The notes below the pieces were generated by a model. The model worked only from the letters and a program-made list of their open reading frames with translations. It was not told the origin of the DNA and searched no databases. Made by a program: the position numbers and the translations under genes. A stretch of DNA of 64,000 nt from Deltaproteobacteria bacterium (lineage in GTDB: Bacteria; Desulfobacterota; RBG-13-43-22). Shown in pieces: positions 19,301-53,030 of this stretch. The first letter of the stretch is position 1; each line of letters begins with the position of its first letter. The stretch is from positions 3,944 to 67,943 of the forward strand of contig JACQYK010000175.1 in NCBI GenBank assembly GCA_016208255.1. Direction: 5' to 3'.

Positions 19301-19463
19301 GACAGGATTAACAGGATTTACATGATTTTTGCTCAGGCTCCAGAAGACCCTGAGCAACTTTAATCCGCTTTCAGCGGAGACTTGGGCTTCGTCTGTAGGA
19401 CGATTCTCCTTTGCCTTTCTTCCGGAAAGGCAAAACAATCCAGATTATCCTGTAAATCCTGTC
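19301..19463 (+). repeat. Family A TIR-bounded multi-hairpin element, copy A1
   Basis: Runs GACAGGATTAACAGGATT ... AATCCTGTAAATCCTGTC and fills the ligase-ACAD intercistronic gap. Confidence 0.85.
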
Positions 19464-19467
19464 TAAA

Positions 19468-21093
19468 TTAGTTCTTTTCCCCAAATTGTTCGACGAGTTT
19501 ATTCTTCATCACCTTTCCCCCCGGATTGGTCGGCATCTCCGATAAAAAGAAAACCTTTTGAGGTATTTTATAAGAGGCTAACTGATCCCGGCAGTACTCC
19601 TTTATTTCTTCCAGGGTAATTTTTCCGGCGCCCGGCCGGGGGACGACGGCACAGGCCACCCTACCGCCCATGACCGGATCGGGCAGGCTGAAAACCGCCA
19701 CATCCAGAATCTTGGGGTGGAGATGGAGGACGTTTTCCACCTCGACCGGATAGACATTTTCCCCTCCACGGTTGATCATCTCCCGGCTGCGTCCCACCAG
19801 ATAGAGGAATCCATCCTTATCCTGATAGGCCATGTCGCCGGTATAAAACCATCCCTGTTGAAATACTTTGGCGGTTTCTTCGGGTACTTTATAATACCCT
19901 TTGGTGACCAGCGCACCGCGCACCGCCAGTTCACCGACGGCATTCGGGCCCAATTCTTTCCTGGTCAGGAGATCGACGATTTTAACTTCGGTACACAAGT
20001 TCGGTTTTCCTACGGAGGTGGGGTGAGTTTCCAGGTATAAATCCGGTAGCGCGCTGATGGAGGGGGCCTCCGTCATCCCATATCCATTCCTGAGGCGGGC
20101 CGAGGGAAAAACTTCTTTAAGTTCTTTTAACAGATCGGGGGCCATGGGGGCCGCACCAAAACCAAGCCTCCGGATACTGTCCACCCTGGAACCGCGAATG
20201 GCCGTTTTATTAAGCAGCAGCCAATACATGGTCGGTGTTCCGGTTAAACCAAAAAGTTCCCCCCGGTTTATGAGATCCATAATTTCCTGGGGGTTGAAAG
20301 AGGCCAGCAGAATACTGCCACGTCCTAGAAATACGGCTGCTACCATCTGCTCAATAGCCATGATGTGAAAAAGGGGAGCGACGATCAACATATATTGCTT
20401 TTGAGGCAGTTCCGGGGCTGGGGAACCTGAAGAGGCCGACAGGGCCAATCCTCGAGCGATCGTTGCCCCGGACCTGAAGGCACAAGTAATGATGTTGCGA
20501 TGAGTGAGCATGACCCCTTTGGGTATTCCGGAGGTCCCGGAGGTGAATAGGATGAAGGCCGTATCTTCTTCGGAAATTAGCTCTGCCGGCCCGGTTTGTT
20601 TCCCGGCAGGCAGGTCCCTTATCCAACCATCTCCAAGTACAAACTGCTGGAAGGTAAGGTTCTCGGAAGGCAGTTCTCTTAACTTTTCCGACATCAGCAG
20701 TGAAGAAATTAACAGCTTAAGATCTGAAAATTGTAACTGTCGTTCCAGTTCCGGAGTGGCTAATCGGGTATTAAAAATGACCGCCGTGGCTCCCAGGTTC
20801 TGGATAGCCCAGAAGGAGATAACAAAACCGATGGAATTCTCCATCAGGATGCCAACTTGGTCCCCTGGACCGGCCTCGGCCTTCTCTTTGATACGGGAGG
20901 CCAGCCTGACCGCCAGGTCCGCAGCCTGGCCGAATGTGATCCGGTTTTGTTCCTCGATCAGATAAATTTCATCCTTATAAGTGATGGTGCTTTGAAGAAA
21001 CATTTCCCACATATTTCGGAAACGGTTCTTGAAGGTCTGTATCGGATAACCTCCCACCTCAACGGTTTCTAATGAAAAATCATCAGTCAACAT
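19468..21093 (-). CDS. AMP-dependent acyl-CoA synthetase/ligase
   Basis: 541 aa. AMP-binding motif FTSGTSGIPKG, plus YGMTE and a C-terminal GKVMK. Confidence 0.92.
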   Translation of the reverse strand: MLTDDFSLETVEVGGYPIQTFKNRFRNMWEMFLQSTITYKDEIYLIEEQNRITFGQAADLAVRLASRIKEKAEAGPGDQVGILMENSIGFVISFWAIQNLGATAVIFNTRLATPELERQLQFSDLKLLISSLLMSEKLRELPSENLTFQQFVLGDGWIRDLPAGKQTGPAELISEEDTAFILFTSGTSGIPKGVMLTHRNIITCAFRSGATIARGLALSASSGSPAPELPQKQYMLIVAPLFHIMAIEQMVAAVFLGRGSILLASFNPQEIMDLINRGELFGLTGTPTMYWLLLNKTAIRGSRVDSIRRLGFGAAPMAPDLLKELKEVFPSARLRNGYGMTEAPSISALPDLYLETHPTSVGKPNLCTEVKIVDLLTRKELGPNAVGELAVRGALVTKGYYKVPEETAKVFQQGWFYTGDMAYQDKDGFLYLVGRSREMINRGGENVYPVEVENVLHLHPKILDVAVFSLPDPVMGGRVACAVVPRPGAGKITLEEIKEYCRDQLASYKIPQKVFFLSEMPTNPGGKVMKNKLVEQFGEKN

Positions 21094-21166
21094 AATGGTA
21101 AACCTCCTAACTCTTTTCTATGGGAAGGTATTATCTTTAGAGATTATCTTTAATAGTTATTATATA

Positions 21167-21221
21167 TGATAGTATGTTTTATTGATAGTAAAAAAATATT
21201 ACTTTAAAAAAATAAAGTCAA
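21167..21221 (-). promoter_or_regulatory. Candidate sigma70 promoter with two TACTATCA boxes upstream of the ligase operon
   Basis: The minus strand reads TTGACT-N17-TATTTT-ttt-TACTATCA-N8-TACTATCA. It shares TTGACTTTAT and the boxes with 12361-12401. Confidence 0.4.
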
Positions 21222-21309
21222 GCGATTTTTTTCAATAATCTTATTGTGGAGAAAAGAACCAGATAGGGACAGCAAGGAGAGAAATGAATGCAGTATGTTA
21301 TTGCAATAA

Positions 21310-21705
21310 TAGAATCCGTGACCAAGAGGGGTTGACAGGATTAATAGGTGCTTTCCCGTCACGGACCGGAAATCAATCACCCTGTTTTAGAAGATCGACC
21401 AACACACCTCCAACCTTTATTGGTAAGATTAATTCTCAGGGAACCGGTTTGTCCGGGGCGTTGACGGCCACGATGACATCTTCTTCGGGGGTTTCCCGGG
21501 CGAAAGCTAATTGCTCGGACTTAACCAGAAGCGGACGATAATCGCCGGGGCGCAGGGCAGGGGAGTGGAGCCGGATATGAGACAGGCGGCTGGTGATCCA
21601 GCCAAGGATTAACGGGAGAGCAAAAGTCATTTTTAGGAGGAGCCCCGCAAAAACCAAACGGATAAATGTGATAGAAAACCGAATCAAAAGCCCAGTGATC
21701 CAATA
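21310..21705 (-). pseudogene. Remnant of a second GH13 paralogue (N-terminal ~40 aa joined to C-terminal ~90 aa)
   Basis: HWAFDSVFYHIYPFGFCGAPPKNDFCSP and YRPLLVKSEQLAFARETPEEDVIVAVNAPDKPVP match the two ends of the 10222-11506 gene. DNA identity is roughly 75-80% by eye over ~100 nt. Confidence 0.7.
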
Positions 21706-21755
21706 TCAATTTCCTTTGTACTATTTTAATGGGACTCCACCACCCCAATACAAAC

Positions 21756-22460
21756 TTACAAATATTCTTCTAACTCTTGTTTGAGTTTGGCAATCTGACT
21801 CATCGCTTCATCCGCTAACGCCTGATGGCTGTGATGATGATTGGCATAAATCGGCTTTCCAAAACTCACAATCAATTTTTTAAATTTTCCGATATGTCCT
21901 GAATTGTGAATGTACATGGGAAGAATAGGGGCGCCGGTTTTTTGGGCCAGGAGACCCAGGCCCGCCTTGGCCGGCTGAAAGTGATCGGTTTTGCCGCGTC
22001 CCCCTTCCGGGAAAATAATCAACGCCCCATTTTTTGAGAGAATTGCCACTGACAACCGAAGGGCCGCGATATCTCCCCCTCGACGCTTCAGCGGATGAGC
22101 ATTGCATTGGGTGATGATCCAACCAAAAGGTCGGAATCTAAAAAGCTCTTCTTTGGCCAGAAAATGAACCGGGCGGGGGATGGTTATTCCAACGACTTGC
22201 GGATCGGCATAGGATTTATGGTTGCTGGCAATAATGAGCGACCCTTTTAGGGGAACACGTTCAGCATGCCTTATTTGCAATCTCCAGACGATTTTATATA
22301 CCCAATAAAAAAGGAAGCGGCTGAGCCGATAGACAAATCTTAATTCATTAGGGTCCCGGTCCAAGACTGACTTTTTCATCACACCGATATTAATTTCCTG
22401 AGATTTGACCAAAATGTCGGAAAAGAAAGGTCGCTGCTTGCCAAGGTTTAATGCCTTCAA
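21756..22460 (-). CDS. plsC: 1-acyl-sn-glycerol-3-phosphate acyltransferase
   Basis: 234 aa. HX4D motif NHKSYADP and FPEGGRG. The TTG start overlaps the upstream stop; an alternative ATG is at 22379. Confidence 0.88.
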   Translation of the reverse strand: MKALNLGKQRPFFSDILVKSQEINIGVMKKSVLDRDPNELRFVYRLSRFLFYWVYKIVWRLQIRHAERVPLKGSLIIASNHKSYADPQVVGITIPRPVHFLAKEELFRFRPFGWIITQCNAHPLKRRGGDIAALRLSVAILSKNGALIIFPEGGRGKTDHFQPAKAGLGLLAQKTGAPILPMYIHNSGHIGKFKKLIVSFGKPIYANHHHSHQALADEAMSQIAKLKQELEEYL

Positions 22461-23455
22461 TGATGAGCGCCTCTTGGTTCTTTTTGATAAAAGAAGATCC
22501 GCCCATTTATTTGACTCCTTCCAATTTTTCCCTCTTTTTCCAGTTGCAGCAAATGAACATAGGTTTCATTGAAGGCCAGGCCCTGGTCAAAACCGGAAAG
22601 GGAGTCCCCGAAAATCCTTTTTGATATTTCGGAGGTCAGTTGGGGAGTATTAGAAACGGATCGCCAGGTCAAATCTTTTCTCTGGATATGATGCTCGATA
22701 ATTTCTTTCACCCGCCCGGGGAGATCCTCAAAAGGCTCCCCATGGGCGGGATAGACCGTCTTGACCGGCAAGGCCCTGATCCGCTCCAACGACCCTATGA
22801 AATTTTCCAGGGGGAGGAAGGTCGGACAGGCCGGGTCCGGACTCAGGTTTGGGGTTATATGGGGCAGGATACAATCCCCGGAGAGAAAGATTTGTTCTTC
22901 CGGTAAATAAAAGGAAAGATGACCCCGGGTGTGGCCCGGAGTAAAGAGGGCGCAAAAGGTCCTGCCTCCAATTTTTATCAATGCTCCGTCATTCAAAAAA
23001 TGATTGGTGAGGAATGGGGCAGTGGCCGAAGTGAAAGCGTCTAATACGGTGCTAAAGGCAACGATGGTTTTTTCATCCAGTCCATACTGCCGCCAAAAGT
23101 TTCCGATTGACTCAATTTTTCGATGATCCCGATGAGCCCGGGTAATGGCCTCGAATTCTACCTCAGACAAAAAGATACGGGCTTCTGAGATTTCTTTGAT
23201 TCGTCCGGCGAATCCGCAATGGTCCACATGGGAATGGGTGATGAAAATCCGGTCCACATCCTCGATAGACCGCCCGATGCGGGCTAAAGCGCTTTTATAC
23301 ATGGAAAAGCTGGAAGGGAGGGAGGGCCCGGTATCGAAAAGGGCGACCCGATCCTGTTCCAAAGCGGCATAGGTATGGACAAAATCAAGTCCAAAGGCCA
23401 GTGGGATGCTGATCCGGTATAGCCCCGGGGCGATTTCTTGAACGGTTTCTTTCAA
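22457..23455 (-). CDS. MBL-fold metallo-hydrolase
   Basis: 332 aa. HxHxDH motif THSHVDHCG, and a later GHTRGH. Confidence 0.85.
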   Translation of the reverse strand: MKETVQEIAPGLYRISIPLAFGLDFVHTYAALEQDRVALFDTGPSLPSSFSMYKSALARIGRSIEDVDRIFITHSHVDHCGFAGRIKEISEARIFLSEVEFEAITRAHRDHRKIESIGNFWRQYGLDEKTIVAFSTVLDAFTSATAPFLTNHFLNDGALIKIGGRTFCALFTPGHTRGHLSFYLPEEQIFLSGDCILPHITPNLSPDPACPTFLPLENFIGSLERIRALPVKTVYPAHGEPFEDLPGRVKEIIEHHIQRKDLTWRSVSNTPQLTSEISKRIFGDSLSGFDQGLAFNETYVHLLQLEKEGKIGRSQINGRIFFYQKEPRGAHH

Positions 23456-23482
23456 TGGGTACCTTTATTGCGCAGGTCGTTG

Positions 23483-24304
23483 TTATTTTTTCCCGCCTCT
23501 AAGTCTGGTCATGGACGCTTTCATGGCATCTTGACTGTCTTGGGTGGTACGAATCACTCCCATATGGGATGAGATCATATCCAGGGCCGTCCGCAAATCA
23601 ACACGACTGCTCTGATAGACGGCGCGTTTGATCAGTTGAATGACCTTGGTCGGTCCGTCGGCCAACTGCCGGGCAAATTGGTAGGTCTCTTCCATCAATT
23701 GGTTGTCGGGGAAGACCTTATTGACCATTCCGATACGCTCCGCCTCCGGCGCGAAAATAAAGTCACCGGTCATCAGAAGCTCCAGGGCTTTGGCAACCCC
23801 GACCAGTCTGGGCAGATAGTAAGCCCCTCCGTCTCCGGGGACAAATCCGACCTTGACGTATCCTTCCGAAAACCTGGCCGACTCGGCGGCAAAGCGGATA
23901 TCGCACATCAGGGCCATGTCCAGCCCGGCGCCGACGGCCACACCGTTTAAGGCGGCGATGACCGGTTTATCCGTATCCTCCAGGGTCAGGGGAATACGGT
24001 GGATCCGTTCCCATAAGTTGCTTTTGTGATCAAAGGCCGTCGGGGCCGCGGTGGCCCCCTCTTGAGCCGGCGCAAAATAGGCACCGGCGCAGAAAGAATC
24101 GCCGCTCCCCGTCAGGACAATGACCTTGACCTCCGGGTCGGTACGCCATTCCTGCAGGGCATTGGCCCATTGGTCAATCATGTCCATGGAAAAGGAGTTT
24201 TTCCTCTCGGGGCAATTTAAAGTAATCGTGGCAATCCCATTCTCTTTTTTAAATAAAATCTCCGGCTTGTTCATGATTAGTCCTTTCTCTCTTGATTTGA
24301 CCAT
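23483..24304 (-). CDS. Enoyl-CoA hydratase/isomerase (crotonase family)
   Basis: 273 aa. Crotonase pattern ITLNCPERKN...FCAGAY...AALNGVAVGAGLDMALMCD. Confidence 0.9.
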   Translation of the reverse strand: MVKSREKGLIMNKPEILFKKENGIATITLNCPERKNSFSMDMIDQWANALQEWRTDPEVKVIVLTGSGDSFCAGAYFAPAQEGATAAPTAFDHKSNLWERIHRIPLTLEDTDKPVIAALNGVAVGAGLDMALMCDIRFAAESARFSEGYVKVGFVPGDGGAYYLPRLVGVAKALELLMTGDFIFAPEAERIGMVNKVFPDNQLMEETYQFARQLADGPTKVIQLIKRAVYQSSRVDLRTALDMISSHMGVIRTTQDSQDAMKASMTRLRGGKK

Positions 24305-24434
24305 TCAAATTTTCTTTAGGCCTTGCCGTCTCACCTGCAAAAATTTTATTTACCTTATAACTACCTCAGATTGAATTTATGTCAAGTGATTCTTGAACGG
24401 CCCGCAAAAGAGGAACAGGGGCTGATCATAATTT

Positions 24435-24464
24435 TTGACATTAGTGCGGGTCTCATTGTAATAT
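24435..24464 (+). promoter_or_regulatory. Candidate sigma70 promoter
   Basis: TTGACA (24435-24440), an 18-nt spacer, then TAATAT (24459-24464). It lies ~120 nt upstream of the MoaD/ThiS-like reading frame. Confidence 0.45.
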
Positions 24465-24583
24465 CAAGCGGAACCGGAACATGATCATCCCCCTCTTTTT
24501 CCCTTTAGGATACCTGGTTGGATACATCTGACTGGTAAAAGGGGATCAGGGAGGCAACCTCTTTTTCAGGCGAAGTCTTCTTT

Positions 24584-24822
24584 ACGAACGTCACCGTTAA
24601 ATTATTCGGGACCTTGAGTGACCTTTTCCCGGAGTATGATTTTGAGAAAGGTCTGGAATTGGATCTGCCCGAAGGCTCGAAAGTGGCCGATCTTTTAACC
24701 CTTCTGGATATTTCCGATGACCGGGGGGAACGGTATTGATGGGCAGCCGGTTTTTGTCCAGGGAGGAAAAGGTGTTCCCCGGATCACAGGTCCTCATTTT
24801 TCAAGCCCTGAATGGGGGGTGA
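24584..24822 (+). pseudogene. MoaD/ThiS-family sulfur-carrier (beta-grasp, C-terminal GG), frameshifted with no start codon
   Basis: (T)NVTVKLFGTLSDLFPEYDFEKGLELDLPEGSKVADLLTLLDISDDRG is in one frame. TVLMGSRFLSREEKVFPGSQVLIFQALNGG* is in the -1 frame. The junction is the G6 run at 24723-24728. ACG occupies the position where ATG is expected. Confidence 0.6.
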
Positions 24823-24829
24823 AATCCTA

Positions 24830-25100
24830 ACCCACCCTGACCCTCCCAACTTGGAGGTTGTGTCGCAATGGCAATTCTTTCATTCCTTGCAGCGAAGCGC
24901 GAGACGGAATCCTGTATTTTTAGGAAGTTCTGGATACCGGCTTTCGCTCGACCTCCTTTGGAGGTCTCTTAATTGAGGTCGGTATTCGGCATCCGAATGG
25001 ATGCCTCTTCAAAAGCTCGATGAAATCGAGCGGCCCGACCGACCGGTATGACGGTTTTGCTGGCACTTTTAGTATTTACGGCACACCCTCTTGCGGGGGA
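24830..25100. repeat. Composite repeat-rich spacer
   Basis: Contains the module CCTCTTCAAAAGCTCGATGAAATCGAGCGGCCCGACC (25004-25040), which recurs at 48758-48794, and a degenerate family-C-like CTGGATACCGGCTTTCGC. Confidence 0.5.
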
Positions 25101-25130
25101 GGGAGGTAATGGCAGTTATGGAGTTAAGGT

Positions 25131-26024
25131 ATGTTAGGTGCCGGTATTGCGCTGCTCACGTCGCTGGCCTGGTCGATAAGCAGTATCTGTGTCAAGCTGG
25201 TGGCTGACAGAGTTGAGTCGCTGATCATCAACACCCTTCGCACCTGGGTCGGTTCGGCCCTGCTCATCTCCTTAGTCATGGTTACCGGCCGCTATGAGAC
25301 TCTTTCCCAAATTTCTTGGGAATCATTCGTCTATGTGGTCAGCTCCGGTATTCTGGCCATGGCCATCGGGGACACGATCTATATTAAAAGTGTATCCCTT
25401 TTGGACGTCTCCATCGCCTTTCCTCTCTCCCAGTGCGCTTTCATCCTTTTAACGGTCCTGTCGGCGATTTTATTTTTAGGAGAACAGTTTACCTGGATCA
25501 CCATCACCGGGGGCGTTTTGGTGGTTCTGGGCATTTACTTGATGACCTCATCCCGGGGCCGGGGAGGCGTCCCAACGGATAGAAAACGGGTCAATCCCAA
25601 GGGTTTGTTTTTCATTCTGATCGCCATTCTGGCCTGGACCGGGGCCACCCTCTTATTGAAAATCGGGGTCACTGGAGTGGACCCTTTTATCGCCGCCTGT
25701 TTGAGAATATCCACTTCGGCGATTGTTTTATTCTTTTTTTTCCATTCCAGGCCGAACAAGGAAAACACCCCATTGAGGCAGATCAGCAAAAAAAACCTGG
25801 CCCTGGTGGCCTCCGCCGGGTTTCTCACTTACGGTGTGGCGGCGGTAGGATACATATCGGCCATTCAATTGATCGGCGCGGGGAAAACGGTGCTTCTGAC
25901 CGCCATTGCCCCCATCTTCGCCTTGCCTTTTGCCATCTTCATCCTCGGTGAAAAACCTACGAGATATACCCTGTTGGGAGTCATGATCAGTGTCATCGGT
26001 GTTTGGCTGGTGGTGGTTAAATAA
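25131..26024 (+). CDS. EamA/DMT-family transporter
   Basis: 297 aa with ~10 predicted TM helices in two EamA-like halves. Confidence 0.85.
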   Translation: MLGAGIALLTSLAWSISSICVKLVADRVESLIINTLRTWVGSALLISLVMVTGRYETLSQISWESFVYVVSSGILAMAIGDTIYIKSVSLLDVSIAFPLSQCAFILLTVLSAILFLGEQFTWITITGGVLVVLGIYLMTSSRGRGGVPTDRKRVNPKGLFFILIAILAWTGATLLLKIGVTGVDPFIAACLRISTSAIVLFFFFHSRPNKENTPLRQISKKNLALVASAGFLTYGVAAVGYISAIQLIGAGKTVLLTAIAPIFALPFAIFILGEKPTRYTLLGVMISVIGVWLVVVK

Positions 26025-26047
26025 CGGCTCTGAAAAGAAGTGACTTG

Positions 26048-26386
26048 TTATCCCTGCAGATCTTGAATATCCAAAGCAATACTGAGGGCACGATTAAGCT
26101 CTTCGATCTTTTGCGGGGAAAGCGACCCAACGAAGTTCGTTAGAATCGACTTGGGCAGACTTACCAGTTCATCACAATGGATACTGCTGTCGTGCTTTAA
26201 CCCATCTTTTACACCAACCGAGACTTGAGTGGAAAGGCTGTCATGAACAGAATAAATTGGAGCACAGACAACCGTGGAGAAACGCGAATCTATGAGAACT
26301 TGGCGGCTAACAATAACAAATACTCTGGATTTTTTGGGATCCTTGGCTGAAGGATTAGCCACACGATACAGTTCCCCACGTTTCAC
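26048..26386 (-). CDS. mazF: MazF/PemK-family type II toxin (endoribonuclease)
   Basis: 112 aa. MKRGELYRV...RVFVIVSRQ...VVCAPIYS is typical of PemK/MazF. It overlaps the upstream RHH gene by 4 nt. Confidence 0.88.
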
Positions 26387-26613: not shown

Positions 26614-26708
26614 ACTACTTTTATACTCCGTTAAGAATACTTTGTCAAAGAGAAAAATTAATATTGTTTTTCGCCCGTTTTTATTTGTCTCAAGGATAAA
26701 AGTCCTCT

Positions 26709-28019: not shown

Positions 28020-28129
28020 TCCTGGATAAAGCCATTCTGGTTAAGAAAAATTCACTTGCATTGTGAAAATAAACCGGTTTATAGTATAAATCAAATTAAT
28101 AATTATTATAGAATAGATAAGAAAAAATT

Positions 28130-34910: not shown

Positions 34911-34950
34911 AAAAACCCCGGCGGTCGGATGACCACCGGGGTTTTGTTAT
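34911..34950 (+). terminator. Rho-independent terminator after ahcY
   Basis: AAAACCCCGGCGGT-cggatga-CCACCGGGGTTTT followed by GTTATTT. Confidence 0.7.
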
Positions 34951-34984
34951 TTAGTAATACTTTAGACGTATGAAAAGATTTTCT

Positions 34985-35146
34985 GACAGGATAACAGGAT
35001 TTACACGTTTATTACTCAGGCTCCGGTGATACTGAGCACCTTAGCTCCATCCCAGCGGAAGGAAGGGCCTTTCTCCGCAGGATGATTTGGTTTGTGCCTT
35101 TCTTCTGGAAAGGCACAAAAATCCAGGTAATCCGGTAAATCCTGTC
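34985..35146 (+). repeat. Family A element, copy A2
   Basis: GACAGGATAACAGGATTT ... AATCCGGTAAATCCTGTC, with the same internal hairpin modules as A1. Confidence 0.85.
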
Positions 35147-35261
35147 GGATAAAAGATTGGATGTTCAAAGAGCTAAATTGACACGTTATTTATTAGATTG
35201 AAAAAATGAGTGGCTGAATTCGATTTATGATCCCCACTGCTGCTTCAAAGTAAAATCTATT

Positions 35262-37371: not shown

Positions 37372-37406
37372 TCTTGAATGAATCCTAAATAACCGGCACT
37401 TTTTTT

Positions 37407-37500
37407 CGTCATTCCCGAACGTCTTTATCGGGAATCCAGTTTTAAAAAAATGAGCAATCAAAATCCCTGGATTCCGGCTAAGAACTTGCCGGAATGACGG
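37407..37500. repeat. Family C paired hairpin repeat (CGTCATTCC...GGAATCCAG type)
   Basis: CGTCATTCCCGAacgtctttaTCGGGAATCCAG, ~35 nt, then CCTGGATTCCGGCtaagaacttGCCGGAATGACG. The two units are mutually inverted. Confidence 0.75.
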
Positions 37501-37568
37501 ATAAGGAAGCGCATTAGAAAATAACCATCGATAAAATTTTTATCGATGTACATTTAACATGCGATTTT

Positions 37569-39552: not shown

Positions 39553-39766
39553 ATCTCTCGCCCGCTTCGCTCGAGAGCGCAGAGGACCCAGAGAGACCAT
39601 TAACAGGTCTGAATCCCTGAGAAGGGGATTAAGACCCCGGACTCAGCCTCCGGTAAAGATCGCAGCAGCGCTGGACCGGTTTTTCATTGCGGTCCTCTCA
39701 ACCGCAATGAAAAAATTAATTCGTCCTCAGTGATCTCTGTGGGCTCTAGCGGAGCGGGCGAGAGAT
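39553..39766. repeat. Family D: 214-bp element bounded by ~24-bp terminal inverted repeats
   Basis: ATCTCTCGCCCGCTTCGCTCGAGAGC (left) versus GCTCTAGCGGAGCGGGCGAGAGAT (right). An internal 8-bp-stem hairpin is CATTGCGGtcctctcaaCCGCAATG. Confidence 0.75.
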
Positions 39767-43930: not shown

Positions 43931-43992
43931 TTTCTCTCCTGCCTTTCACGGAAATTAAGAAATCACTTCATTCTTATGAAAATAAATTATCT

Positions 43993-44188
43993 GACAGGAT
44001 TAACAGGATTGACATCTACTTTGCTCAGGCTCCGGACGACCCTGAGCAAACTCAATCCGCTCTCAGCGAAAATTAAGACCGTCCGAAGGACGATTCATTT
44101 TGTGCCTTTCTTCCCTATGCTTGTCTGTTTTATTGCATGCAGACAAGTCGAAAGGTACAAAAATCATAGTAATCCTGTAAATCCTGTC
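43993..44188 (+). repeat. Family A element, copy A3 (with an extra nested hairpin)
   Basis: GACAGGATTAACAGGATT ... AATCCTGTAAATCCTGTC. The last hairpin is expanded by CTTGTCTGttttattgcatgCAGACAAG. Confidence 0.85.
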
Positions 44189-44302
44189 TAAGATAAGTAT
44201 TTAAATTTCAAAAAGCAAAACTGATATGAAAAAAAATCCCCTGAAAAAAAACCAAAAATGTAGGTAAAGGCCCGGGTAAATTTTCCCTGGGCCTGGTTGG
44301 GG

Positions 44303-45844: not shown

Positions 45845-46035
45845 TTTGATCTCTCCTTTTCTTTATAAATAAAAAAATTTCCTTCTGACGCCGAATTATA
45901 AAATAATGGTAGCTGGTATGTCAAAAGGGAAAACCGATTCAAATTGCTTTTTAATGTGGAGAGTATAAAATAAGAATAAAAGGATCAAGAAGAAAATCGA
46001 GGAAATCCTGATTGAGAAAAGAAAGTTTGAAAACC

Positions 46036-46064
46036 CCTGGACCCCGGTTTTCACCGGGGTGACG
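46036..46064. repeat. Family C-like single hairpin unit
   Basis: CCTGGACCCCGGTtttcACCGGGGTGACG. Confidence 0.5.
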
Positions 46065-46100
46065 ACTTATTAGGATGCCGTCTTAAAAAAGGAGATAAAC

Positions 46101-47540
46101 ATGGGGAATTTAGAAGAATTATGGTGGCTGGACGCCACCGCCCTGGCGGGACTGATCAGCAAAAAGGAGATCACTCCTCTGGAACTGGTGGACATCGCCA
46201 TCCGGCGTATAGAACGGCTGAATCCAAGATTAAACGCGGTGGTCACCCCCCTCTTTGATCAAGCCCGGAAAACCGCCTCCGCCGATATTCCGGCCGGGCC
46301 TTTTAAGGGGGTGCCTTTTCTCATGAAGGATATCGGGGCCGGGCTGGCCGGCGTCCCCATGTCTATGGGTACGGCCTTATTAAAAGACTACATCCCGGAC
46401 CATGACAGCGAACTGACCATTCGCTATAAAAAGGCCGGTTTAATAATTTTAGGAAAAACCAATACCCCCGAGTTGGGATTGATTCCGACCACGGAACCCC
46501 GGCTTTTCGGCCCGACCCGAAATCCCTGGAATACGGAAAGGACTACCGGCGGTTCCAGTGGCGGGGCGGCCGCGGCGGTCGCCTCCGGAATGGTGCCTTT
46601 GGCGCATGGGAATGACGGGGGCGGTTCCATACGAATTCCTTCCTCCTGCTGTGGGTTGTTCGGGCTAAAACCAACCAGGGCCCGTAATTCATTAAGCCCT
46701 GATTTTGGTGACATTTTCTCCGGTCTGGTTTGTGAGCATGTCCTGACCCGATCGGTGAGAGACAGTGCGGCCATGCTCGATTGGACCGCCGGACCGGTCA
46801 GCGGCGATCCCTACTGGGCCCCCCCTCAGCAGAGACCTTTCCTGCAGGAGGTGGGAGCTGATCCCGGACAGTTGCGCATTGCTTATTCCAGATATTCCGC
46901 TATGGAAGAATTTCTCCATCCTGACTGTAGACATGCCGTGGAGGAAACGGCCAGACTTCTTGAAGGCCTGGGTCATATAGTAGAGGAGGCAACACCGGAA
47001 TTAACGCTGGAACCGGAAGCGATAGGGCAGGCTTTTACGGCGGTCTGGCAAGCCGGTTGCGCCTCAACCATCGACCTGATCATGCAGGTTGCCGGGATAC
47101 CGGCTCAACCCGATCTTTTTGAACCCCTGACCTGGTTTCTATATGAACGCGGCCGAAAGGTCACGGCCTCGGAATATTTGCGGGCTGTTACTATCATCCA
47201 ACGCCTGACCCGCGAAATCGCCGCCTTTCATCAGAAATATGAAGTAATGCTGACTCCTGTTCTGGCACAGCCGCCAGTGCCTATAGGGACCTTCGATGTC
47301 CGGGAGGGCGAAGATCCCGCGGAGGCTTGGGGACGTATTGCGGCTTTTGCCCCCATTACACCTTTGCAGAACTCTACCGGCCAACCGGCCCTGTCGATTC
47401 CCCTGTTTTGGAACCAGGATGGGCTTCCCATCGGTTCCCATCTGGTCGGTCGGTTCGGTGACGAAGCCACACTTTTTCGATTGGCCGCGCAGCTTGAAGA
47501 AGCACAGCCCTGGGCCGACAGACGACCTCTGATATCCTGA
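46101..47540 (+). CDS. Amidase (amidase-signature family)
   Basis: 479 aa. [12 protein letters not shown] and [12 protein letters not shown]. Confidence 0.92.
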
Positions 47541-47602
47541 CTTTTAATAAAGTCTGAAAGGCTTGTCCCATTTATTGGTTAGGAGTAATTCTGCAGTTTA
47601 AT

Positions 47603-47693
47603 CTCAAACTAAGCCTTCATGCCCCCGCGGGGAGCGATGAATCATGAAAAAGGGGTTCGCCTTACGCTAACGCCTAACGTATTTTCGTATTAA
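47603..47693 (-). repeat. Family B repeat, copy B3 (inverted)
   Basis: The reverse complement reads CTTAATACGAAAATAcgttaggcgttagcgtaaggcgaaccccTTTTTCATGATTCATCGCTCCCCGCGGGGGCATGAAGGCTTAG. Confidence 0.7.
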
Positions 47694-47710
47694 GAAAGGA
47701 GATCAAAATC

Positions 47711-48517
47711 ATGGAAACATATGGCCATTATGAATTCATTAAGGTCGAAAAAGAGGGCAAGCTGGTTACCTTAACCCTAAACCGTCCGGACTCCCTGAAC
47801 GCCATCCACTCTCAATTTCACCGCGAGCTTGAAAACATTTGGATCGATGTGGCCCGGGATGGTGATGTCAACGCCATTATTCTGACCGGCGCCGGAAAAG
47901 CATTCAGTGCCGGTGGAGATGTGAAGGGAATGGATTCCCGAAGTGATCCCGACCAAGCCAAGCGCTATTCCCTGATGACCGTGGCCAATGCCCGCAGACT
48001 GATTCAAAATATGTTGGCGGTCGAACAGCCGATCATCGGGGCCATCAACGGGGATGCGGTGGGGCTGGGGGCCACCATCGCCCTCTTCTGTGATGTGGTG
48101 ATAGCAGCGGAAAAGGCCCGTTTTGGAGACCCCCACGTCAAGGTCGGCATCGTTGCCGGAGATGGAGGAGCGATTATTTGGCCGGCACTGATCGGCGTTT
48201 CCAGGGCCAAAGAGTTTCTAATGACCGGAAAACTGATTAATGCGGTTGAAGCGGAGCGGATCGGCCTGGTCAACCACGCCGTTCCCCAGAGTGAGGTCCT
48301 TCCCAAAGCCAGGGATCTGGCCCAGGAACTGGCCGAGGGGCCCACCTGGGCCATTCGCTACACCAAAATAGCGGTCAATAAATGGTTAAGTCATCAAGTC
48401 AATTTGATCCTTGACGCTTCGCTCGGCCTGGAAATGCTCACTTTTAACACCGAGGATCACAAAGAGGCCACCCGCGCCTGGGTGGAGAAAAGAAAACCCC
48501 AATTTAAAGGATTCTAA
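47711..48517 (+). CDS. Enoyl-CoA hydratase/isomerase
   Basis: 268 aa. LTLNRPDSLNA...FSAGGD...GAINGDAVGLGATIALFCD. Confidence 0.92.
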   Translation: METYGHYEFIKVEKEGKLVTLTLNRPDSLNAIHSQFHRELENIWIDVARDGDVNAIILTGAGKAFSAGGDVKGMDSRSDPDQAKRYSLMTVANARRLIQNMLAVEQPIIGAINGDAVGLGATIALFCDVVIAAEKARFGDPHVKVGIVAGDGGAIIWPALIGVSRAKEFLMTGKLINAVEAERIGLVNHAVPQSEVLPKARDLAQELAEGPTWAIRYTKIAVNKWLSHQVNLILDASLGLEMLTFNTEDHKEATRAWVEKRKPQFKGF

Positions 48518-48544
48518 ACCGTCAGGCCACGCTATTTGTGGCCT

Positions 48545-48833
48545 GACAGGATTTATCGGATTACCCGGATTTTTGTGCCTTTCGACTTGTCTGCATGCAA
48601 GCAGACAAGCAAGGGGAAGAAGGGCACAAGCCAAATCGTCCTGCGGGTCAAGCATTGGTTCCGGCTGAAAATGGATTGAGGTTGCTCAGGGTCTTCAGGA
48701 GCCTGAGCCAGGTATCTGAAAATCCGTTCGGTCGGCTCATTGGCTCCCCAAGGGGAGCCTCTTCGAAAGCTCGGCAAAGCCGAGCGGCCCGACCTCAAAA
48801 AAGGTTCCCTTTTGGGAACCGCTTGATCCTGTC
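48545..48833 (-). repeat. Family A element, copy A4 (inverted, with a ~100-bp composite insertion)
   Basis: Begins GACAGGATTTATCGGATTAC and ends GATCCTGTC. It is collinear with the reverse complement of A3 up to ~48720, then carries extra hairpins including the 48758-48794 module shared with 25004-25040. Confidence 0.8.
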
Positions 48834-48840
48834 AAATTAT

Positions 48841-48882
48841 TTTTTCATATTTCGTAGTGCCTCGAAAGGGAATAAGCCTTAT
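48841..48882 (+). repeat. Family B repeat, partial copy B5
   Basis: TTTTTCATATTTCGTAGTGCCTCGAAAGGGAATAAGCCTTA, abutting the SDR stop codon. Confidence 0.5.
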
Positions 48883-49646
48883 TATAACCCATGCCACTGG
48901 ATGATCTCTTCGTCCCGGGCCACACATCCGGTAACGCCCCGGGCGTCTTGTTGAGCCAGGAAGAGAGCCGCTTTGACCATTTTCTCCGGCCCTATCAACC
49001 GTGACTTGTCATAGTCGGGTGGCAAATTGAACACAAACCCTTCTGTGGCCACTCCCTGGGCCGGTTTATAGCAGTTGACGGCAATATTATAGGGTCCAAG
49101 TTCAGCGGCCAAACTGCAAGTGAAATGTTCGATCGCCGCCTTGGCCGTGCCGTAGGCAATGCCGGTGACCCCGTAGACCCTGCTGTCAGCCGCTCCGGAA
49201 CTGGTATTGATAATGCTCCCGCTTCTTTCCTCCATCATAGAGGGAAGGACGGCTTTAGTACAAAGGAAAGTTCCCAGAAGGTTAACCCCGATGACCAGAT
49301 TCCAACGGCGGGTCGTGGTCTCGACCAAGGGGCCGGGGGCGGCTACTGCTGCATTGTTAACCAGGATATCGATCTTGCCCCACTCTCTCAGCACCTTTTG
49401 GACCATGTCCTGGACTTCGCCTTCGATCAAGACATTAGTTGGTATGGCTAAAACCTTACCGCCGGCGGCTTTAAGTAGATCGGCGGTTTCAAGAATGGTG
49501 CCGGATAAACCGGTCTTGAGCGGCTCGACCGTTCTCCCGATAACCGCTACGCTGGCCCCTTCCCTGGCGAATTCAACGGCGACCGCCTTGCCGATCCCCC
49601 TGCTGGCGCCTGTGACTATCGCCACTTTTCCATTAAGTTTTCCCAT
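48882..49646 (-). CDS. SDR-family oxidoreductase
   Basis: 254 aa. TGASRGIGKA, NNAA and YGTAK (YxxxK). Confidence 0.92.
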   Translation of the reverse strand: MGKLNGKVAIVTGASRGIGKAVAVEFAREGASVAVIGRTVEPLKTGLSGTILETADLLKAAGGKVLAIPTNVLIEGEVQDMVQKVLREWGKIDILVNNAAVAAPGPLVETTTRRWNLVIGVNLLGTFLCTKAVLPSMMEERSGSIINTSSGAADSRVYGVTGIAYGTAKAAIEHFTCSLAAELGPYNIAVNCYKPAQGVATEGFVFNLPPDYDKSRLIGPEKMVKAALFLAQQDARGVTGCVARDEEIIQWHGL

Positions 49647-49670
49647 GGTGAACTCCTTTCTCCCTCAGGT

Positions 49671-49719
49671 TTACGTATTAAGGGTTTCATATAGTCTCGA
49701 ACATTTTGGTTTGCCTTAG
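49671..49719 (+). repeat. Degenerate family B-like copy (B6)
   Basis: TTACGTATTAAGGGTTTCATATAGTCTCGAACATTTTGGTTTGCCTTAG. The CTTAATACG motif (gene sense) lies ~25 nt upstream of the SDR ATG. Confidence 0.4.
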
Positions 49720-49820
49720 ATTGGAGACGAGGGGAATTTATCTTAGTCAATATTCTGTGGAGACCCTTAATACAGCAGTGAAAATGAAAAGAATATAGAG
49801 ACACTTTTTATTTTAAATAG

Positions 49821-51272
49821 TTATTTCGAATAGCTCGCTTTTCGGTCCAGGAATTCGTGATAGCCGATAAACCGGCTGAGGGCTTTGGCCGCCGAAGGGA
49901 CGCTGGGATAGACCGGGATCCCTGCCTCCAGGCATTTTTGTTGGGCCTGAAGAACGGCATTGATCGTTTCCGCCCGTCCCCCGGCATAAAGGACGATGAC
50001 CAGGGGCTTGGACAGTTGTTTGGACAGCTTGAGGAGGATGCTGATGGTTTCGTCCAGAGACTGATTTAATCGCTGACCGGTCCCCCCATAGATATCGATC
50101 CCGAGATGGGTTAATATGATATCAATACCCGGATCCCTTTCAATGGCTTTCAGTCCTTCTTCATAAAAGGCGGCCCAGGCGGCCAATCCCTTGTCCGGTT
50201 CCACCGGATTCCGCGCGCTGGTCCCGGCGTCAGGGATCCGCTGCTCCAAGCGGGTTTGGGTGTCCGGGTGAAAGGGAGGGACCTTTAATCCCGCTTTTTC
50301 GCACATGTCCGTAGCCACCACCCCCAGTCCCCCGCCCCGGCCGACAATGCCAACGCGCCGCCCGGCCGGACGATGGAGATGGATGAAGGCCATGGCCACA
50401 TCCAGCAGTTCTTCCAGATCGTCGACCCGGATAACTCCGGTCTGTCTGAAAAAGGCCTCCCAGATGATTTCCGAACCGGCCAGGACCGCGGTGTGAGAGG
50501 CCGCTGCCCGGCTGCCGCCTTCGGTGATACCGGCTTTTAAGGCTATGACCGGTTTCCGTTCGGTGCATTCCCGGAGTACCTTGAGGTATCGCCGGCCATC
50601 CTTAACCCCTTCAAGATAAGAGGTGATCAAACGGGTCTCCGGATCGGTCGACAGATATTCGACGAAATCCGTTCCGTCGAGGTCAATGGCGTTTCCGTAA
50701 CTGACCACCTTGCTGAAATAAATACCCCTTTCATTCCCCTGGGCCACCACCCGGGAAGCCGAAGCCCCACTCTGGGAGACAAAGGCTACCGTACCCGGTT
50801 TCCTGGACAGGAACCGGCCGAAGGTGAGCCCCCCCTGGGGATAATAAAGACCCATACAATTGGGCCCGATCACCCTTATCCCCGCTTCCCTGGCAATCCT
50901 TTCTATTTCGTTCTGGAGCCTGATCCCTTCCGGCTTTCCGGTCTCACTGAAGCCGGCGGTGTAAACATGCACAAACTTGACCCCCTTGGAGGCACAATCA
51001 GACATGACCTGGTCCGACACCCGGAAGGGGACATTAAAGATAGCCAGATCCACCGGGCCGGGAACATCCTTTATGTTTGGATAAGCTTTGAGGCCCATGA
51101 TTTCGCCGGCTTTAGGATTGATCGGAAAGATTTTTCCGGAATAACCAAAGTCGATCAAGCGGGACACCCAGCCGTCGTTTTCCAGCGATTCGTTCGACCG
51201 GGCGCCAATGACAGCAATCGATCCGGGGTGAAATATTTCATCGATTACATCTTTCGATTCTGAAATAGTCAT
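49821..51272 (-). CDS. ADP-forming acyl-CoA synthetase, alpha part (CoA-binding plus CoA-ligase domains)
   Basis: 483 aa. SIAVIGARSN..., GPNCMG and FVSQSGA motifs are typical of the NDP-forming acyl-CoA synthetase/SucD-like superfamily. No ATP-grasp part is present. Confidence 0.82.
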   Translation of the reverse strand: MTISESKDVIDEIFHPGSIAVIGARSNESLENDGWVSRLIDFGYSGKIFPINPKAGEIMGLKAYPNIKDVPGPVDLAIFNVPFRVSDQVMSDCASKGVKFVHVYTAGFSETGKPEGIRLQNEIERIAREAGIRVIGPNCMGLYYPQGGLTFGRFLSRKPGTVAFVSQSGASASRVVAQGNERGIYFSKVVSYGNAIDLDGTDFVEYLSTDPETRLITSYLEGVKDGRRYLKVLRECTERKPVIALKAGITEGGSRAAASHTAVLAGSEIIWEAFFRQTGVIRVDDLEELLDVAMAFIHLHRPAGRRVGIVGRGGGLGVVATDMCEKAGLKVPPFHPDTQTRLEQRIPDAGTSARNPVEPDKGLAAWAAFYEEGLKAIERDPGIDIILTHLGIDIYGGTGQRLNQSLDETISILLKLSKQLSKPLVIVLYAGGRAETINAVLQAQQKCLEAGIPVYPSVPSAAKALSRFIGYHEFLDRKASYSK

Positions 51273-51383
51273 GATCTTCCTCTTGTTTGGTTATTAATAA
51301 TTATCATAGGGTAATTAAAAGTGTCAAGGCAGCCAAAGGTCTACCCGGCCCCTTAGGGTTCCCATATATTGTCTTATATCACA

Positions 51384-51470
51384 TTTAATACGAAAATAGA
51401 GTTCGGCGTCAAATGAACTCTGTTTTCATGTCTGGTGGTGTCACGTCCCTGTCGGGGCATGACGGTTTAG
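51384..51470 (+). repeat. Family B repeat, copy B4
   Basis: TTTAATACGAAAATAgagttcggcgtcaaatgaactctgTTTTCATGTCTGGTGGTGTCACGTCCCTGTCGGGGCATGACGGTTTAG. Confidence 0.7.
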
Positions 51471-51561
51471 GTTTGACTTGTCAGTCTAAGGAAGATATAC
51501 AAAAAGATAATCCGATCGGGCCAGATACAGCCTGATCACCAAAACACAATGGAGGAAAACG

Positions 51562-52761
51562 ATGACCGACCACCTGCCTTTTGCCAATCCTCAGGAAGTG
51601 GGGATGTCTGCGGAACGTTTGAAACTTATCCGGCCTATGATCCAAAAATATAAGGATCTGCAGTGGATCCCCGGCGCGGTCACCATGGTTGCCCGTCAGG
51701 GGAAAATCGTTCATTTTGAGGTTCAGGGTTTTCAGAATATTGAAAAGCAGATCCCCATGACCAGGGACACCATTTTTCGCATGGCTTCGATGACCAAGCC
51801 GATAACTTCCGTGGCCTTGATGATGTTGTATGAACAGGGCAAATTTCAGCTGGGAGATCCCATTTCCAAATGGCTTCCGGCTTTTAAGGAAATGAAAGTG
51901 GCCGTTTATAAAAATGGAAGAGGGTATGATCTGGTGCCGGCCGACCCTCCCATCAATGTCTGGCATATCCTGACCCACACGGCCGGTTTTGCCACCGAAT
52001 ACAATCCTAAAAACCTGGAGATTTACAAGGAAGCCACAAAATTCCGCAGCCGTAAAGAGGTCATCGGCGATTTTGTGGACCGGATGGCCACGGTTCCCCT
52101 TAACAATCACCCCGGGACTATGTGGGATTATTCCCGGGCAACCTGTGTGGTGGGCCGCCTGGTCGAGGTATTATCCGGACAAACCCTGGCCGATTTTTTT
52201 AAAGAGCATATTTTCGAGCCATTGGGCATGGTGGATTCTTATTTTTTTCTGCCGGAAGAAAAACTGTCCCGCTTTGCCGTGGCCTACACGCCGGGGGAGG
52301 ATAAAAAAATCATCGTGACCGATCCTGATACGACGGAGAGTTTTTGGCTCAGCAAACCCGGCATTTATTATATGGGCTCCGGCGGACTGGTCTCGACCGC
52401 CTCAGATTATTTTCGCTTCGCCAATATGCTGATGAACTGGGGAAAGCACGGAGAGAAGCGGATTCTGGGCCGGAAAACCATTGAATTGATGACCAGGAAT
52501 CATATCGGGAATAGACCGATCTGGCTGACAGGCCCGGGGCATGGCTTCGGCCTGGGGTTCGGGGTTTCTTTGGACCGGGGGGAAACCCATAATATGGTCA
52601 GCGAAGGCACCTATACCTGGGGCGGCGCCTTTTGTACCTATTGGTGGAACGATCCCCAAGAAAAATTATTCGGCATGGTTCTTACCCAGGTGCGCCCCTA
52701 CGATCATCTTAATATCCGGGCGGATATGCAGACGATGGCCACCCAGGCCATAGATGATTGA
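51562..52761 (+). CDS. Serine hydrolase, beta-lactamase/esterase (class C-like) family
   Basis: 399 aa. The S-x-x-K motif is ASMTKPITS, and a G-x-G-G occurs later. Confidence 0.88.
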   Translation: MTDHLPFANPQEVGMSAERLKLIRPMIQKYKDLQWIPGAVTMVARQGKIVHFEVQGFQNIEKQIPMTRDTIFRMASMTKPITSVALMMLYEQGKFQLGDPISKWLPAFKEMKVAVYKNGRGYDLVPADPPINVWHILTHTAGFATEYNPKNLEIYKEATKFRSRKEVIGDFVDRMATVPLNNHPGTMWDYSRATCVVGRLVEVLSGQTLADFFKEHIFEPLGMVDSYFFLPEEKLSRFAVAYTPGEDKKIIVTDPDTTESFWLSKPGIYYMGSGGLVSTASDYFRFANMLMNWGKHGEKRILGRKTIELMTRNHIGNRPIWLTGPGHGFGLGFGVSLDRGETHNMVSEGTYTWGGAFCTYWWNDPQEKLFGMVLTQVRPYDHLNIRADMQTMATQAIDD

Positions 52762-52933
52762 ATGTTTCGGGCCGGAGCGCTGCATGTTCGAAAGCAATTT
52801 CCCGGTGGATAAGCTTTCTCTGTCTTACCCGGTGGTCTGGAATGCCTTCAAAAAAATGGTAGCCGACTTTACCGAGCCAGAAAAAGACGCCCTTTTCCGG
52901 GGGACGGCAACAAAGGTTTATCGTCTAGCTTAG
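52754..52933 (+). pseudogene. 3' remnant of an amidohydrolase-2 family gene (last ~55 codons)
   Basis: My own translation: FGPERCMFESNFPVDKLSLSYPVVWNAFKKMVADFTEPEKDALFRGTATKVYRLA*. This is the typical C-terminus of PF04909-type amidohydrolases. No upstream body is present. Confidence 0.6.
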
Positions 52934-52967
52934 GAAGCTCGGGATCATCTTTTTTTAATATTTATCA

Positions 52968-53030
52968 GACAGGATTTACAGGATTACCTTGATTTTGTGC
53001 CTTTCGACTTTTCTGCCTGAAAGCCGCAGT
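52968..53030 (-). repeat. Family A element, truncated copy A5
   Basis: GACAGGATTTACAGGATTACCTTGATTTTGTGCCTTTCGACTT... matches the same end of A3/A4, but the rest is missing. Confidence 0.7.

Follow-up and report, generated by a model that had tools for sequence, protein, structure and literature searches.

Palindromic repeats of Family A in a Desulfobacterota genome: probable two-layer mobile DNA with a possible nuclease partner

Copies of Family A in the window

We have analyzed a stretch of 64,000 nucleotides from a deltaproteobacterial genome (GTDB lineage Desulfobacterota; contig JACQYK010000175.1), referred to here as the window. Its G+C content is 49.8%. The ACAD encoded there has 96% and 90% identity with proteins from two metagenome contigs and ~79% with Smithellaceae proteins, which places the source among Syntrophales-like Thermodesulfobacteriota. 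The window carries five copies, A1 to A5, of a palindromic repeat called Family A, all within 34 kb. They lie between the genes for AMP-ligase and ACAD (A1), AdoHcyase and HD (A2), aminotransferase and HpaB (A3), enoyl-CoA hydratase and SDR (A4), and beta-lactamase and PPDK (A5). Both orientations relative to the neighbouring genes occur, and A4 and A5 are located between convergent genes. The units measure 163-318 bp and contain no open reading frame (ORF). Reading of the window, BLASTN with each copy and a 15-member profile agree on the same five places that had been given in an earlier note made from the sequence alone, and no sixth copy was found. The terminal 18-mer GACAGGATTWACAGGATT has 9 matches in the window at up to 3 mismatches, compared with 0.11 in shuffled sequences, and a count of 9 was reached by none of 100 shuffles.

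Every copy contains all or part of a core bounded by inverted arms, which are built from tandem nonamers, and some copies carry a further pair of inverted ends outside these arms. A1 (19301-19463, plus strand) consists of the core alone, comprising 3+2 nonamers and the four hairpins, and lacks both the outer ends and a target-site duplication (TSD). It starts 4 nt 3' of the ligase stop codon and, with 163 nt, fills most of the 200 nt that separate the ligase gene from the ACAD gene, as had rightly been said. A2 is a full unit (34954-35184, plus strand) composed of an outer left end (34954-34984), the core (34985-35146) and an outer right end (35147-35184). The full unit of A3 (43960-44227, plus strand) has its core at 43993-44188, preceded by a degraded outer left end (43960-43992) and followed by the outer right end (44189-44227); a nested hairpin module of 35 nt, CTTGTCTG...CAGACAAG (44115-44149, plus strand), sits in the loop of its last hairpin. 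A4 (48545-48862, minus strand) has its core at 48545-48833 and a remnant of the outer left end at 48834-48862, and lacks the outer right end; a multi-hairpin module of 99 nt (48726-48824, minus strand) is inserted between nonamer 1 and nonamer 2 of its arm. A5 (52968-53028, minus strand) is truncated to one arm and part of the last hairpin and is of the A3/A4 subtype. The four internal hairpins described earlier are present when the copies are read, as is the extra nested hairpin of A3 and A4, in the loop of the last hairpin. The terminal GAC of A4 is also the end of a 10-bp hairpin, GTCAGGCCAC-GCTATTT-GTGGCCTGAC (48519-48553), 3' of the enoyl-CoA hydratase stop codon; the copy thus abuts or overlaps a pre-existing hairpin.

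Outer ends and target-site duplications

Alignment of the flanks revealed that many copies of Family A continue past the arms, for ~32 bp on the left (GTAACACGTTAGACTTATGAAAAAAATTATCT) and ~38 bp on the right (TAAAAAAGTTTTGAATTTCAAAAAGCTAAACAGATAC), and that the two extensions are inverted repeats of each other over 24-38 bp. A2, A3 and three related loci (L129, L139 and L141; loci recovered in our searches are given L numbers) carry outer ends of the patterns GTAAYAC.TTAGAC... and ...GCTAAAYWGATAC, and ends of the form GTAYYNNTTTAGCTTTTTGAAA accompany an 8-bp TSD. An 8-bp direct repeat lies immediately outside four of the five units that retain both outer ends. In A2 it is a perfect GTTATTTA on both sides, the left copy (34946-34953) overlapping the T-tract of the terminator hairpin 3' of the AdoHcyase gene and the right copy being at 35185-35192. 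The duplication is also perfect (8/8) in L129 (CGATTTGC) and L141 (AAAAATGC) and matches at 7/8 positions in L139 (AAATATAG / AACTATAG). No TSD is recognisable at the unit borders of A3, the left end of which is degraded.

A sister element of 327 bp is found in L141 (5293-5619), 317 bp from the Family A element of that locus. It has the common outer ends (GTACTATTTTAGCTTTTTGAAAAA ... TTTTTCAAAAAGCTAAAATGATAC) and its own perfect TSD (GAATATAA, 8/8), and its interior is unrelated and lacks the nonamer core. Because of this sister, the outer ends can be taken to define a conventional miniature inverted-repeat transposable element (MITE) with an 8-bp TSD, in one branch of which the core is nested. 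The outer ends are wholly absent from A1, L126 and L136, and only the right end is found in L128, L135 and L138. Since A1 has just 4 nt between its arm and the ligase stop codon, the arm-bounded core appears to have been placed alone as well, without a TSD.

The architecture is thus nested, and the outer layer, which makes the 8-bp duplications, is an ordinary MITE. The earlier description of Family A as MITE-like is borne out by the outer inverted ends, the TSDs on four of five complete units, the sister MITE and the polymorphism of nested modules, although the true ends, which lie further out, had been missed. The companion statement that there was no obvious TSD holds at the arm boundaries used at the time and fails at the outer borders of A2 (34954-35184). 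No transposase was found between the arms or outer ends at ~200 loci examined, including 119 genome loci. At the arms themselves, 73% of 182 outer arms have a T at position -2, with mixed bases at -1. A TA target duplication of the IS630 or Correia type was rejected: the flank is TA in only 63 of the 182 arms, and the palindrome merely continues outward.

Relatives, nesting and turnover

The family is not restricted to the window: its interior recurs in one genome locus and ~12 metagenome contigs, and its arms in more than ten phyla. The four-hairpin interior is lineage-specific, and among the 119 genome loci listed it was seen in L035 alone, a Thermodesulfobacteriota metagenome-assembled genome from a peat bog. 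When metagenomes were scanned with a pattern taken from the 3' portion of the family, 20 contigs were obtained, ~12 with the Family A core and 7 with another interior that has the last hairpin alone in common. Six loci (L127, L130, L131, L134, L142 and L143) hold a second element type of 280-330 bp, with the common nonamer arms and last hairpin around a different interior. The flanks of this second type are ~80-90% identical between contigs, which suggests, from sequence comparison, that one orthologous locus has been kept across related populations.

L132 and L140 represent one locus in two populations, with flanks ~91% identical and Family A in both. A 48-nt module is present in L132 and absent from L140, at exactly the position of the 99-nt insert of A4. 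The loop of the last hairpin is an insertion point in L133 and L143 also. No copy of Family A was detected by profile in L148 and L149 (42 kb in total), the relatives whose ACAD is 96% and 90% identical to that of the window. The contrast between five nested copies within 34 kb of the window and the lack of any in 42 kb of close relatives marks a lineage-specific expansion accompanied by turnover. The ligase-ACAD gap of these two relatives (L148 9740-10000, L149 9887-10000) holds another palindrome, with arms of tandem CTGAAGR (GGCTGAAGACTGAAGAC ... GTCTTCAGCCTTCAGCC).

Mobile DNA or structured RNA

The earlier note had also offered a structured RNA family as a reading. At the gathering thresholds of the families, a search of Rfam 15 gave 0 matches in the whole window and one tRNA only in ten related loci. 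The RNAalifold covariation term is +0.69, with double changes in 3 of 34 pairs. Hairpins annotated by hand on 15 sequences (46 pairs) are paired in 89.6% of cells; double changes occur in 4 of the 46 pairs, compared with 2.6 in shuffles (reached by 96 of 500), and the covariation score is 0.052 compared with 0.045 (reached by 20 of 500). The compensatory exchange that had been pointed out, at the base of the last hairpin, T-A in A1 against G-C, is real; it is one of the four double changes, a number at the level of shuffles. Mismatches of the G-U type and of the A-C type are about equally frequent, so that neither strand is favoured. Mean pairwise identity falls from 0.92 in the arms to 0.87 in internal stems and 0.69 in unpaired columns.

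On the mRNA (minus) strand A1 folds with -74.3 kcal/mol (z = -7.8), and the full unit of A2 has z = -4.9. A1 is likely to be transcribed as part of the ligase-ACAD mRNA. A role as intrinsic terminator was rejected: in either orientation T-rich sequence precedes the element and A-rich sequence follows it, the reverse of what termination requires, and no terminator-like site lies on the mRNA strand at A1. An outward promoter was rejected too; a single TTGACA-16-CATGAT at A1 is on the strand antisense to the neighbours and does not exceed shuffles. The mixed orientations, the truncation, the nesting and the TSDs lead us to read Family A as mobile DNA, and we consider it highly probable that it is a mobile non-coding DNA repeat and not an RNA gene. 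The reading as a structured RNA family finds no support, with no Rfam match, no significant covariation, no strand bias and both orientations relative to genes.

Nonamer arms in other phyla

The arm consists of 2-4 tandem copies of ACAGGATTW, with matches recurring at offsets of +9; in Family A there are 2-3, inverted and preceded by T-n. The ends had been described earlier as terminal inverted repeats (TIRs) with ACAGGAT twice in each. The inverted ends are real, and they are in fact tandem ACAGGATTW arrays belonging to the palindromic core, shared across phyla and linked to a nuclease gene family. An exact 18-mer scan of one genome per GTDB species (596 Gb) gave at least 119 stretches, where chance alone would be expected to give roughly 100 or more exact matches for 17 specified bases. 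For most of the listed matches an inverted partner is found within 600 bp (at most 3 mismatches). Among the matches listed, 87 arm-bounded palindromes of 49-464 bp could be delimited, and their interiors are mutually unrelated, ranging in size from ~10 nt up to a complete gene for a nuclease of ~125 amino acids.

The identical 18-mer arm is present in more than ten phyla and on an archaeal contig. The carriers include Acidobacteriota, Verrucomicrobiota, Kiritimatiellota, Chloroflexota, Bacteroidota, Pseudomonadota, Desulfobacterota, Calditrichota, Armatimonadota and Bacillota (Clostridiales), with Thioalkalivibrio denitrificans ALJD and Spirosoma terrae as cultured representatives. The Methanoperedens contig is truly archaeal, as judged by its RLI/ABCE1 gene (925 bits) and an archaeal RecJ-like gene. 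The elements of T. denitrificans stand on either side of the ubiE-ubiJ-ubiB operon (L008). Outside the lineage of Family A the palindrome runs 5-34 bp past the nonamers in lineage-specific sequence, such as GCAATG|GACAGG in Beta- and Gammaproteobacteria, GAAGAAATA|GACAGG in Acidobacteriota and GGAATGGATTCTAT... in Desulfobacterales. The nonamer arms themselves are conserved across phyla. BLAST against plasmids and phages found only unannotated copies on plasmids of Spirosoma oryzicola and Thiodictyon syntrophicum, and an exact-arm scan of viral contigs gave 48 matches, only ~10 of them paired. In the literature searched, 14-17-mers of the arm matched only unrelated Bacillus primers; a mention elsewhere is possible.

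Two known motifs were considered and rejected by reading. Integron attC sites are not matched, since GTTAATC/GATTAAC does not fit GTTRRRY/RYYYAAC and the window copies lie outside cassette arrays, and the DnaA box TTATCCACA agrees at only 5 of 9 positions. Solo nonamer arms occur in L019 (370-5540) at 788, 2539, 4393 and 5510, among toxin-antitoxin cassettes (PIN/VapC, Phd, RelE/ParE) that resemble a cassette array, and the interior of L020 consists of ordinary genes. In L157 (4180-5340) a collagen-like Gly-X-Y coding repeat of ~1 kb (TGF, TGY, reverse strand) yields many nonamer matches.

Association with GxxExxY nuclease genes

Two of the 87 listed elements, L016 and L073, are gene-bearing: between their arms lies an ORF that matches TIGR04256 GxxExxY / PF13366 PDDEXK_3 with E = 1.7e-37 and 1e-42. 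With TIGR04256 they score 128 and 145 bits (cut-off 35). The L073 protein as query found 6,600 relatives, and the best 120 of these (at least 68% identity) were examined as subfamily 1. In 46 of the 120 the protein ends in a tetrapeptide (such as NPVN, QDLQ, KSCK and TGFT) that can be encoded only by a perfect pair of adjacent nonamers, in several frames and both orientations. Such C-terminal tetrapeptides were found in 0 of 120 members of subfamily 2 and in 0 of 120 ACAD proteins used as a control.

All eight subfamily-1 genes that were read as DNA, in four gene contexts and three phyla, have a plus arm upstream and a minus arm downstream. Besides L016 and L073 they include three cassettes directly after thiC (L120, L121 and L151), where the TAG that opens TAGACAGG doubles as the thiC stop codon; one ~290 nt 3' of thiC, behind a small arm-bounded palindrome (L124); one between yceI and an aldehyde dehydrogenase gene (L152); and one on an Anaerolineae contig (L154). 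The four thiC cassettes are on Acidobacteriota contigs, at ~2960-3400 in L120, L121 and L124 and at 2460-2910 in L151, and what follows downstream varies in gene content. On the complete Acidobacteriota chromosome OY969111.1 the gene-bearing L120 coexists with a gene-less element, L007.

A second subfamily has arms of its own. In L115 (1399-1917) a GxxExxY gene, located in the gap after the preceding ORF and upstream of a nuoG-like gene, is flanked by tandem-repeat arms of the GGAAACCAG type (GAATCTGGAAACCAGGAAACCAGGAAG ... CTTCCTGGTTTCCTGGCTTCCAGATTC). The left arm, with the subfamily-2 tandem repeat GAATCTGGAAACCAGGAAACCAGG, encodes the N-terminus MNLETRKPG. The start MNLETRKP, a translation of the arm, is present in 109 of the 120 closest relatives of the L115 protein (Chthoniobacterales/Verrucomicrobiota, 68-99% identity), and one relative reads through the mirror arm at its 3' end. 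As the arms of the L115 subfamily differ from those of subfamily 1, the type of arm tracks the nuclease subfamily. GxxExxY genes are thus systematically bracketed by arms, and the arm type differs between nuclease subfamilies.

The residues D65, E75 and K77 (D...ExK) are invariant in 45 GxxExxY sequences. An AlphaFold (AF2) model (pLDDT 91.4) is that of a minimal nuclease core, and its best PDB matches are Cas4 SSO0001, lambda exonuclease, LHK-Exo, splicing endonucleases and Hjc, with TM ~0.5-0.6; a sequence search of PDB found no solved homologue. GxxExxY homologues number 6,600-7,100 per protein search. In viral contigs the relatives were limited to two giant-virus-like loci, without arms. 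PF13366 was listed in 2012 as a family of unknown function, found in prokaryotes and viruses and transferred several times between Bacteria and Archaea (PD-(D/E)XK survey, PMC3424549). We found no description of the nonamer superfamily or of its link to PF13366 in the literature searched; prior mention elsewhere is possible.

Interpretation and alternative explanations

Taken as a whole, Family A is probably selfish mobile DNA of two layers, a gene-less, nested member of a nuclease-associated superfamily of palindromes. The first layer would be the nonamer-armed core, which in Syntrophales-like Thermodesulfobacteriota contains the four hairpins, the superfamily as a whole conserving the arms only. 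The second would be the classical 8-bp-TSD MITE, which hosts some of the cores, the composite having been copied whole in A2 and, in degraded form, A3 and A4. Judging from sequence, a GxxExxY nuclease acting in trans may bind or cleave at the nonamer arrays and may move or copy the arm-bounded core, leaving no TSD; the targets would be AT-rich intergenic positions, commonly a few nt past stop codons. The nuclease, on this proposal, would read the arrays and mobilise the units in trans, the gene-less units being non-autonomous derivatives, and the outer MITE would be moved by a DDE transposase. When transcribed, the 17-bp stem of the arms would form a strong double-stranded RNA structure, presumably a side effect and not the reason for the existence of the element. 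The broader proposition, that ACAGGATTW palindromes and the sister arm types are the non-autonomous partners of a hitherto unrecognised class of mobile elements driven by the ~125-amino-acid PD-(D/E)XK nuclease, the product of their only gene, is put forward tentatively, as a possibility that we would not yet favour over its negation.

Several observations weigh against this proposal. A systematic TSD search at the arms of the 87 delimited elements gave nothing consistent and no fixed target, which bears on the chemistry of insertion. No GxxExxY gene was found in the window or in ~150 kb of related DNA (~110 kb of metagenome contigs with Family A and two related loci), and with the gene in only 2 of the 87 listed elements the nuclease could be a frequent passenger and not the driver. 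The empty site of an arm-bounded copy was not recovered, the ligase-ACAD gap of the relatives being filled by the (CTGAAGR)n palindrome. Collagen-like Gly-X-Y coding repeats can give solo exact arm matches by chance. The conservation of the stems, finally, could reflect some constraint, whether at the level of the host or RNA or through mobility of DNA hairpins.

In a simpler alternative the elements would be an ordinary one-layer MITE, with a DDE transposase acting on the outer ends, the nonamers being mere internal sequence and copies without ends having decayed. The small, non-coding, multicopy elements and the perfect or near-perfect duplications around complete units and the sister MITE would suit it well. 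It is nevertheless quite improbable, since the outer ends are lineage-specific and the inner nonamers conserved in more than ten phyla, the reverse of what functional outer ends would lead one to expect. The sister MITE, moreover, has the outer ends and no nonamers, and at other loci nuclease genes are enclosed by nonamer arms. L126, L136 and L138 are without one or both outer ends, and decay cannot explain the missing 32-38-bp ends of A1, given the 4 nt between its arm and the ligase stop codon. It is very improbable that Family A is instead a structured non-coding RNA or a cis-acting mRNA element, such as an RNase III processing site or a stabiliser, with hairpins that function for the host. 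The folds of A1 and A2 are very stable, pairing is maintained across the 15 sequences with stems more conserved than linkers, and A1 probably lies inside the ligase-ACAD transcript, on the mRNA strand of which there is no terminator-like site. Against this stand the lack of an Rfam match and of significant covariation, the absence of a favoured strand, the occurrence of both orientations, the position of A4 and A5 between convergent genes, where transcription is not expected to be needed, and the hallmarks of mobile DNA seen in the truncated A5, the nested insertions and the TSDs.

A third model grants the nuclease a part and denies mobility to the gene-less units. GxxExxY would cut intact nonamer palindromes and copy its own gene into them by repair, as a homing endonuclease does, leaving gene-less palindromes as targets or relics. 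The gene does lie exactly centrally between a plus arm and a minus arm, in differing contexts and phyla, and a dimeric nuclease would suit a palindromic site. Small PD-(D/E)XK homing endonucleases exist, I-Ssp6803I being an example. Homing leaves unexplained the five gene-less copies in 34 kb and the spread across phyla with unrelated interiors; the ratio of gene-less to gene-bearing units is ~85:2 among the elements listed, and nested inserts common to A4 and L132 at different loci suggest that gene-less units have themselves been copied. We regard homing as unlikely. To return to the two-layer reading, a 9-bp unit in tandem inverted arrays that is kept from Acidobacteriota to Methanoperedens while its surroundings vary suggests a transferable protein that reads the array.

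Small intergenic repeats are usually regarded as species-specific clutter. The systematic bracketing by arms, together with the distinct arm of a second subfamily, provides a testable hypothesis for a very large nuclease family of unknown function. If the proposal is correct, a different catalytic fold would underlie a REP/RAYT-like system that has passed horizontally through bacterial phyla into archaea, and a function could be assigned to one of the large "unknown" nuclease families. Arm-bounded elements enter housekeeping operons, a few nt past stop codons, and the double-stranded RNA stems of their arms (at least 17 bp) may affect mRNA processing. They are also a hazard for annotation, as the arms yield spurious protein tails and heads (NPVNPV, QDLQD, MNLETRKPG).

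Comparison with known repeat systems

REP sequences are associated with RAYT (TnpA-REP) proteins, IS200/IS605-like Y1 transposases, of which Nunvar in 2010 and Ton-Hoang in 2012 reportedly gave accounts. The present elements resemble REP/REPIN-RAYT systems (Bertels & Rainey 2011, PMC3116915) in being multicopy, short intergenic palindromes with two inverted arms, a variable spacer and no TSD. Common to both, too, are a single small nuclease gene flanked by the repeats, an arm sequence that varies with the nuclease subfamily, and a location inside housekeeping operons. They differ in that the bracketed protein is predicted to be a PD-(D/E)XK nuclease (TIGR04256/PF13366), with a model like Cas4, lambda exonuclease and Hjc, and not an HUH/Y1 enzyme. 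The arm is a tandem array of 9-mers, whereas a REP is a single imperfect palindrome with a GTAG head. One and the same arm is found in different phyla and domains; a given REP is restricted to its species or genus. RAYTs are present once per genome, in contrast to the numerous GxxExxY genes (6,600-7,100 matches per search).

The outer layer (231-240 bp, non-coding, with TIRs and a fixed 8-bp TSD) is comparable to the Correia elements of Neisseria, to RUP, to ERIC/IRU and to the Chunjie MITEs. Like classical MITEs, its units insert beside terminators and between cistrons and would form strong RNA hairpins; unlike them, the conserved part is internal (the nonamers), and at least three kinds of hairpin module are nested within one another. 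The Correia element, confined to Neisseria, has a 26-bp TIR, TATAG(C/T)GGATTAAC..., and makes a TA duplication. An identification with it was rejected because the arm sequence and the taxa differ and a TA flank is found in only 63/182 arms.

Intervening sequences of 23S rRNA (S23p, PF05635) are similar in that a small, selfish-looking ORF lies within long inverted repeats that form an RNase III-type stem, whereas the elements described here are in intergenic regions of protein genes. Elhai in 2008 and Mazel in 1990 reportedly described very small mobile repeats and the heptamer STRR repeats of cyanobacteria. There, as here, repeats carry short modules inserted in their loops and arms, and tandem 7-9-mers are intergenic; the sequence, the taxa and the architecture are different. 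We know of no report that associates the cyanobacterial repeats with a nuclease.

Other repeats near the elements

In L152 (4490-5200) a PF05635 gene is found two genes downstream of the arm-bracketed GxxExxY cassette and is itself preceded by tandem GATTGGA heptamers. The window holds a second palindromic element between two plus-strand genes (39553-39766), the 41-nt arms of which are 78% complementary and contain short CAGAG-type repeats (GCGCAGAGGACCCAGAG / CTCAGTGATCTCTGTGGGCTC). In L057, L071 and L078 the nonamer arms are flanked by similar arms of CAGAG/CTCTG repeats. Another site in the window (37402-37504) has the adjacent hairpins GTCATTCCCGA...TCGGGAATCCAG and CTGGATTCCGGC...GCCGGAATGAC. 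Its GGAATGAC/CTGGATTCC module recurs in the last-hairpin loop of L143, and a related module, GTCATCCCGAGGAACGAGGGATC, borders the gene for a small GIY-YIG nuclease on a plasmid of Spirosoma (L150, ~3070-3560).

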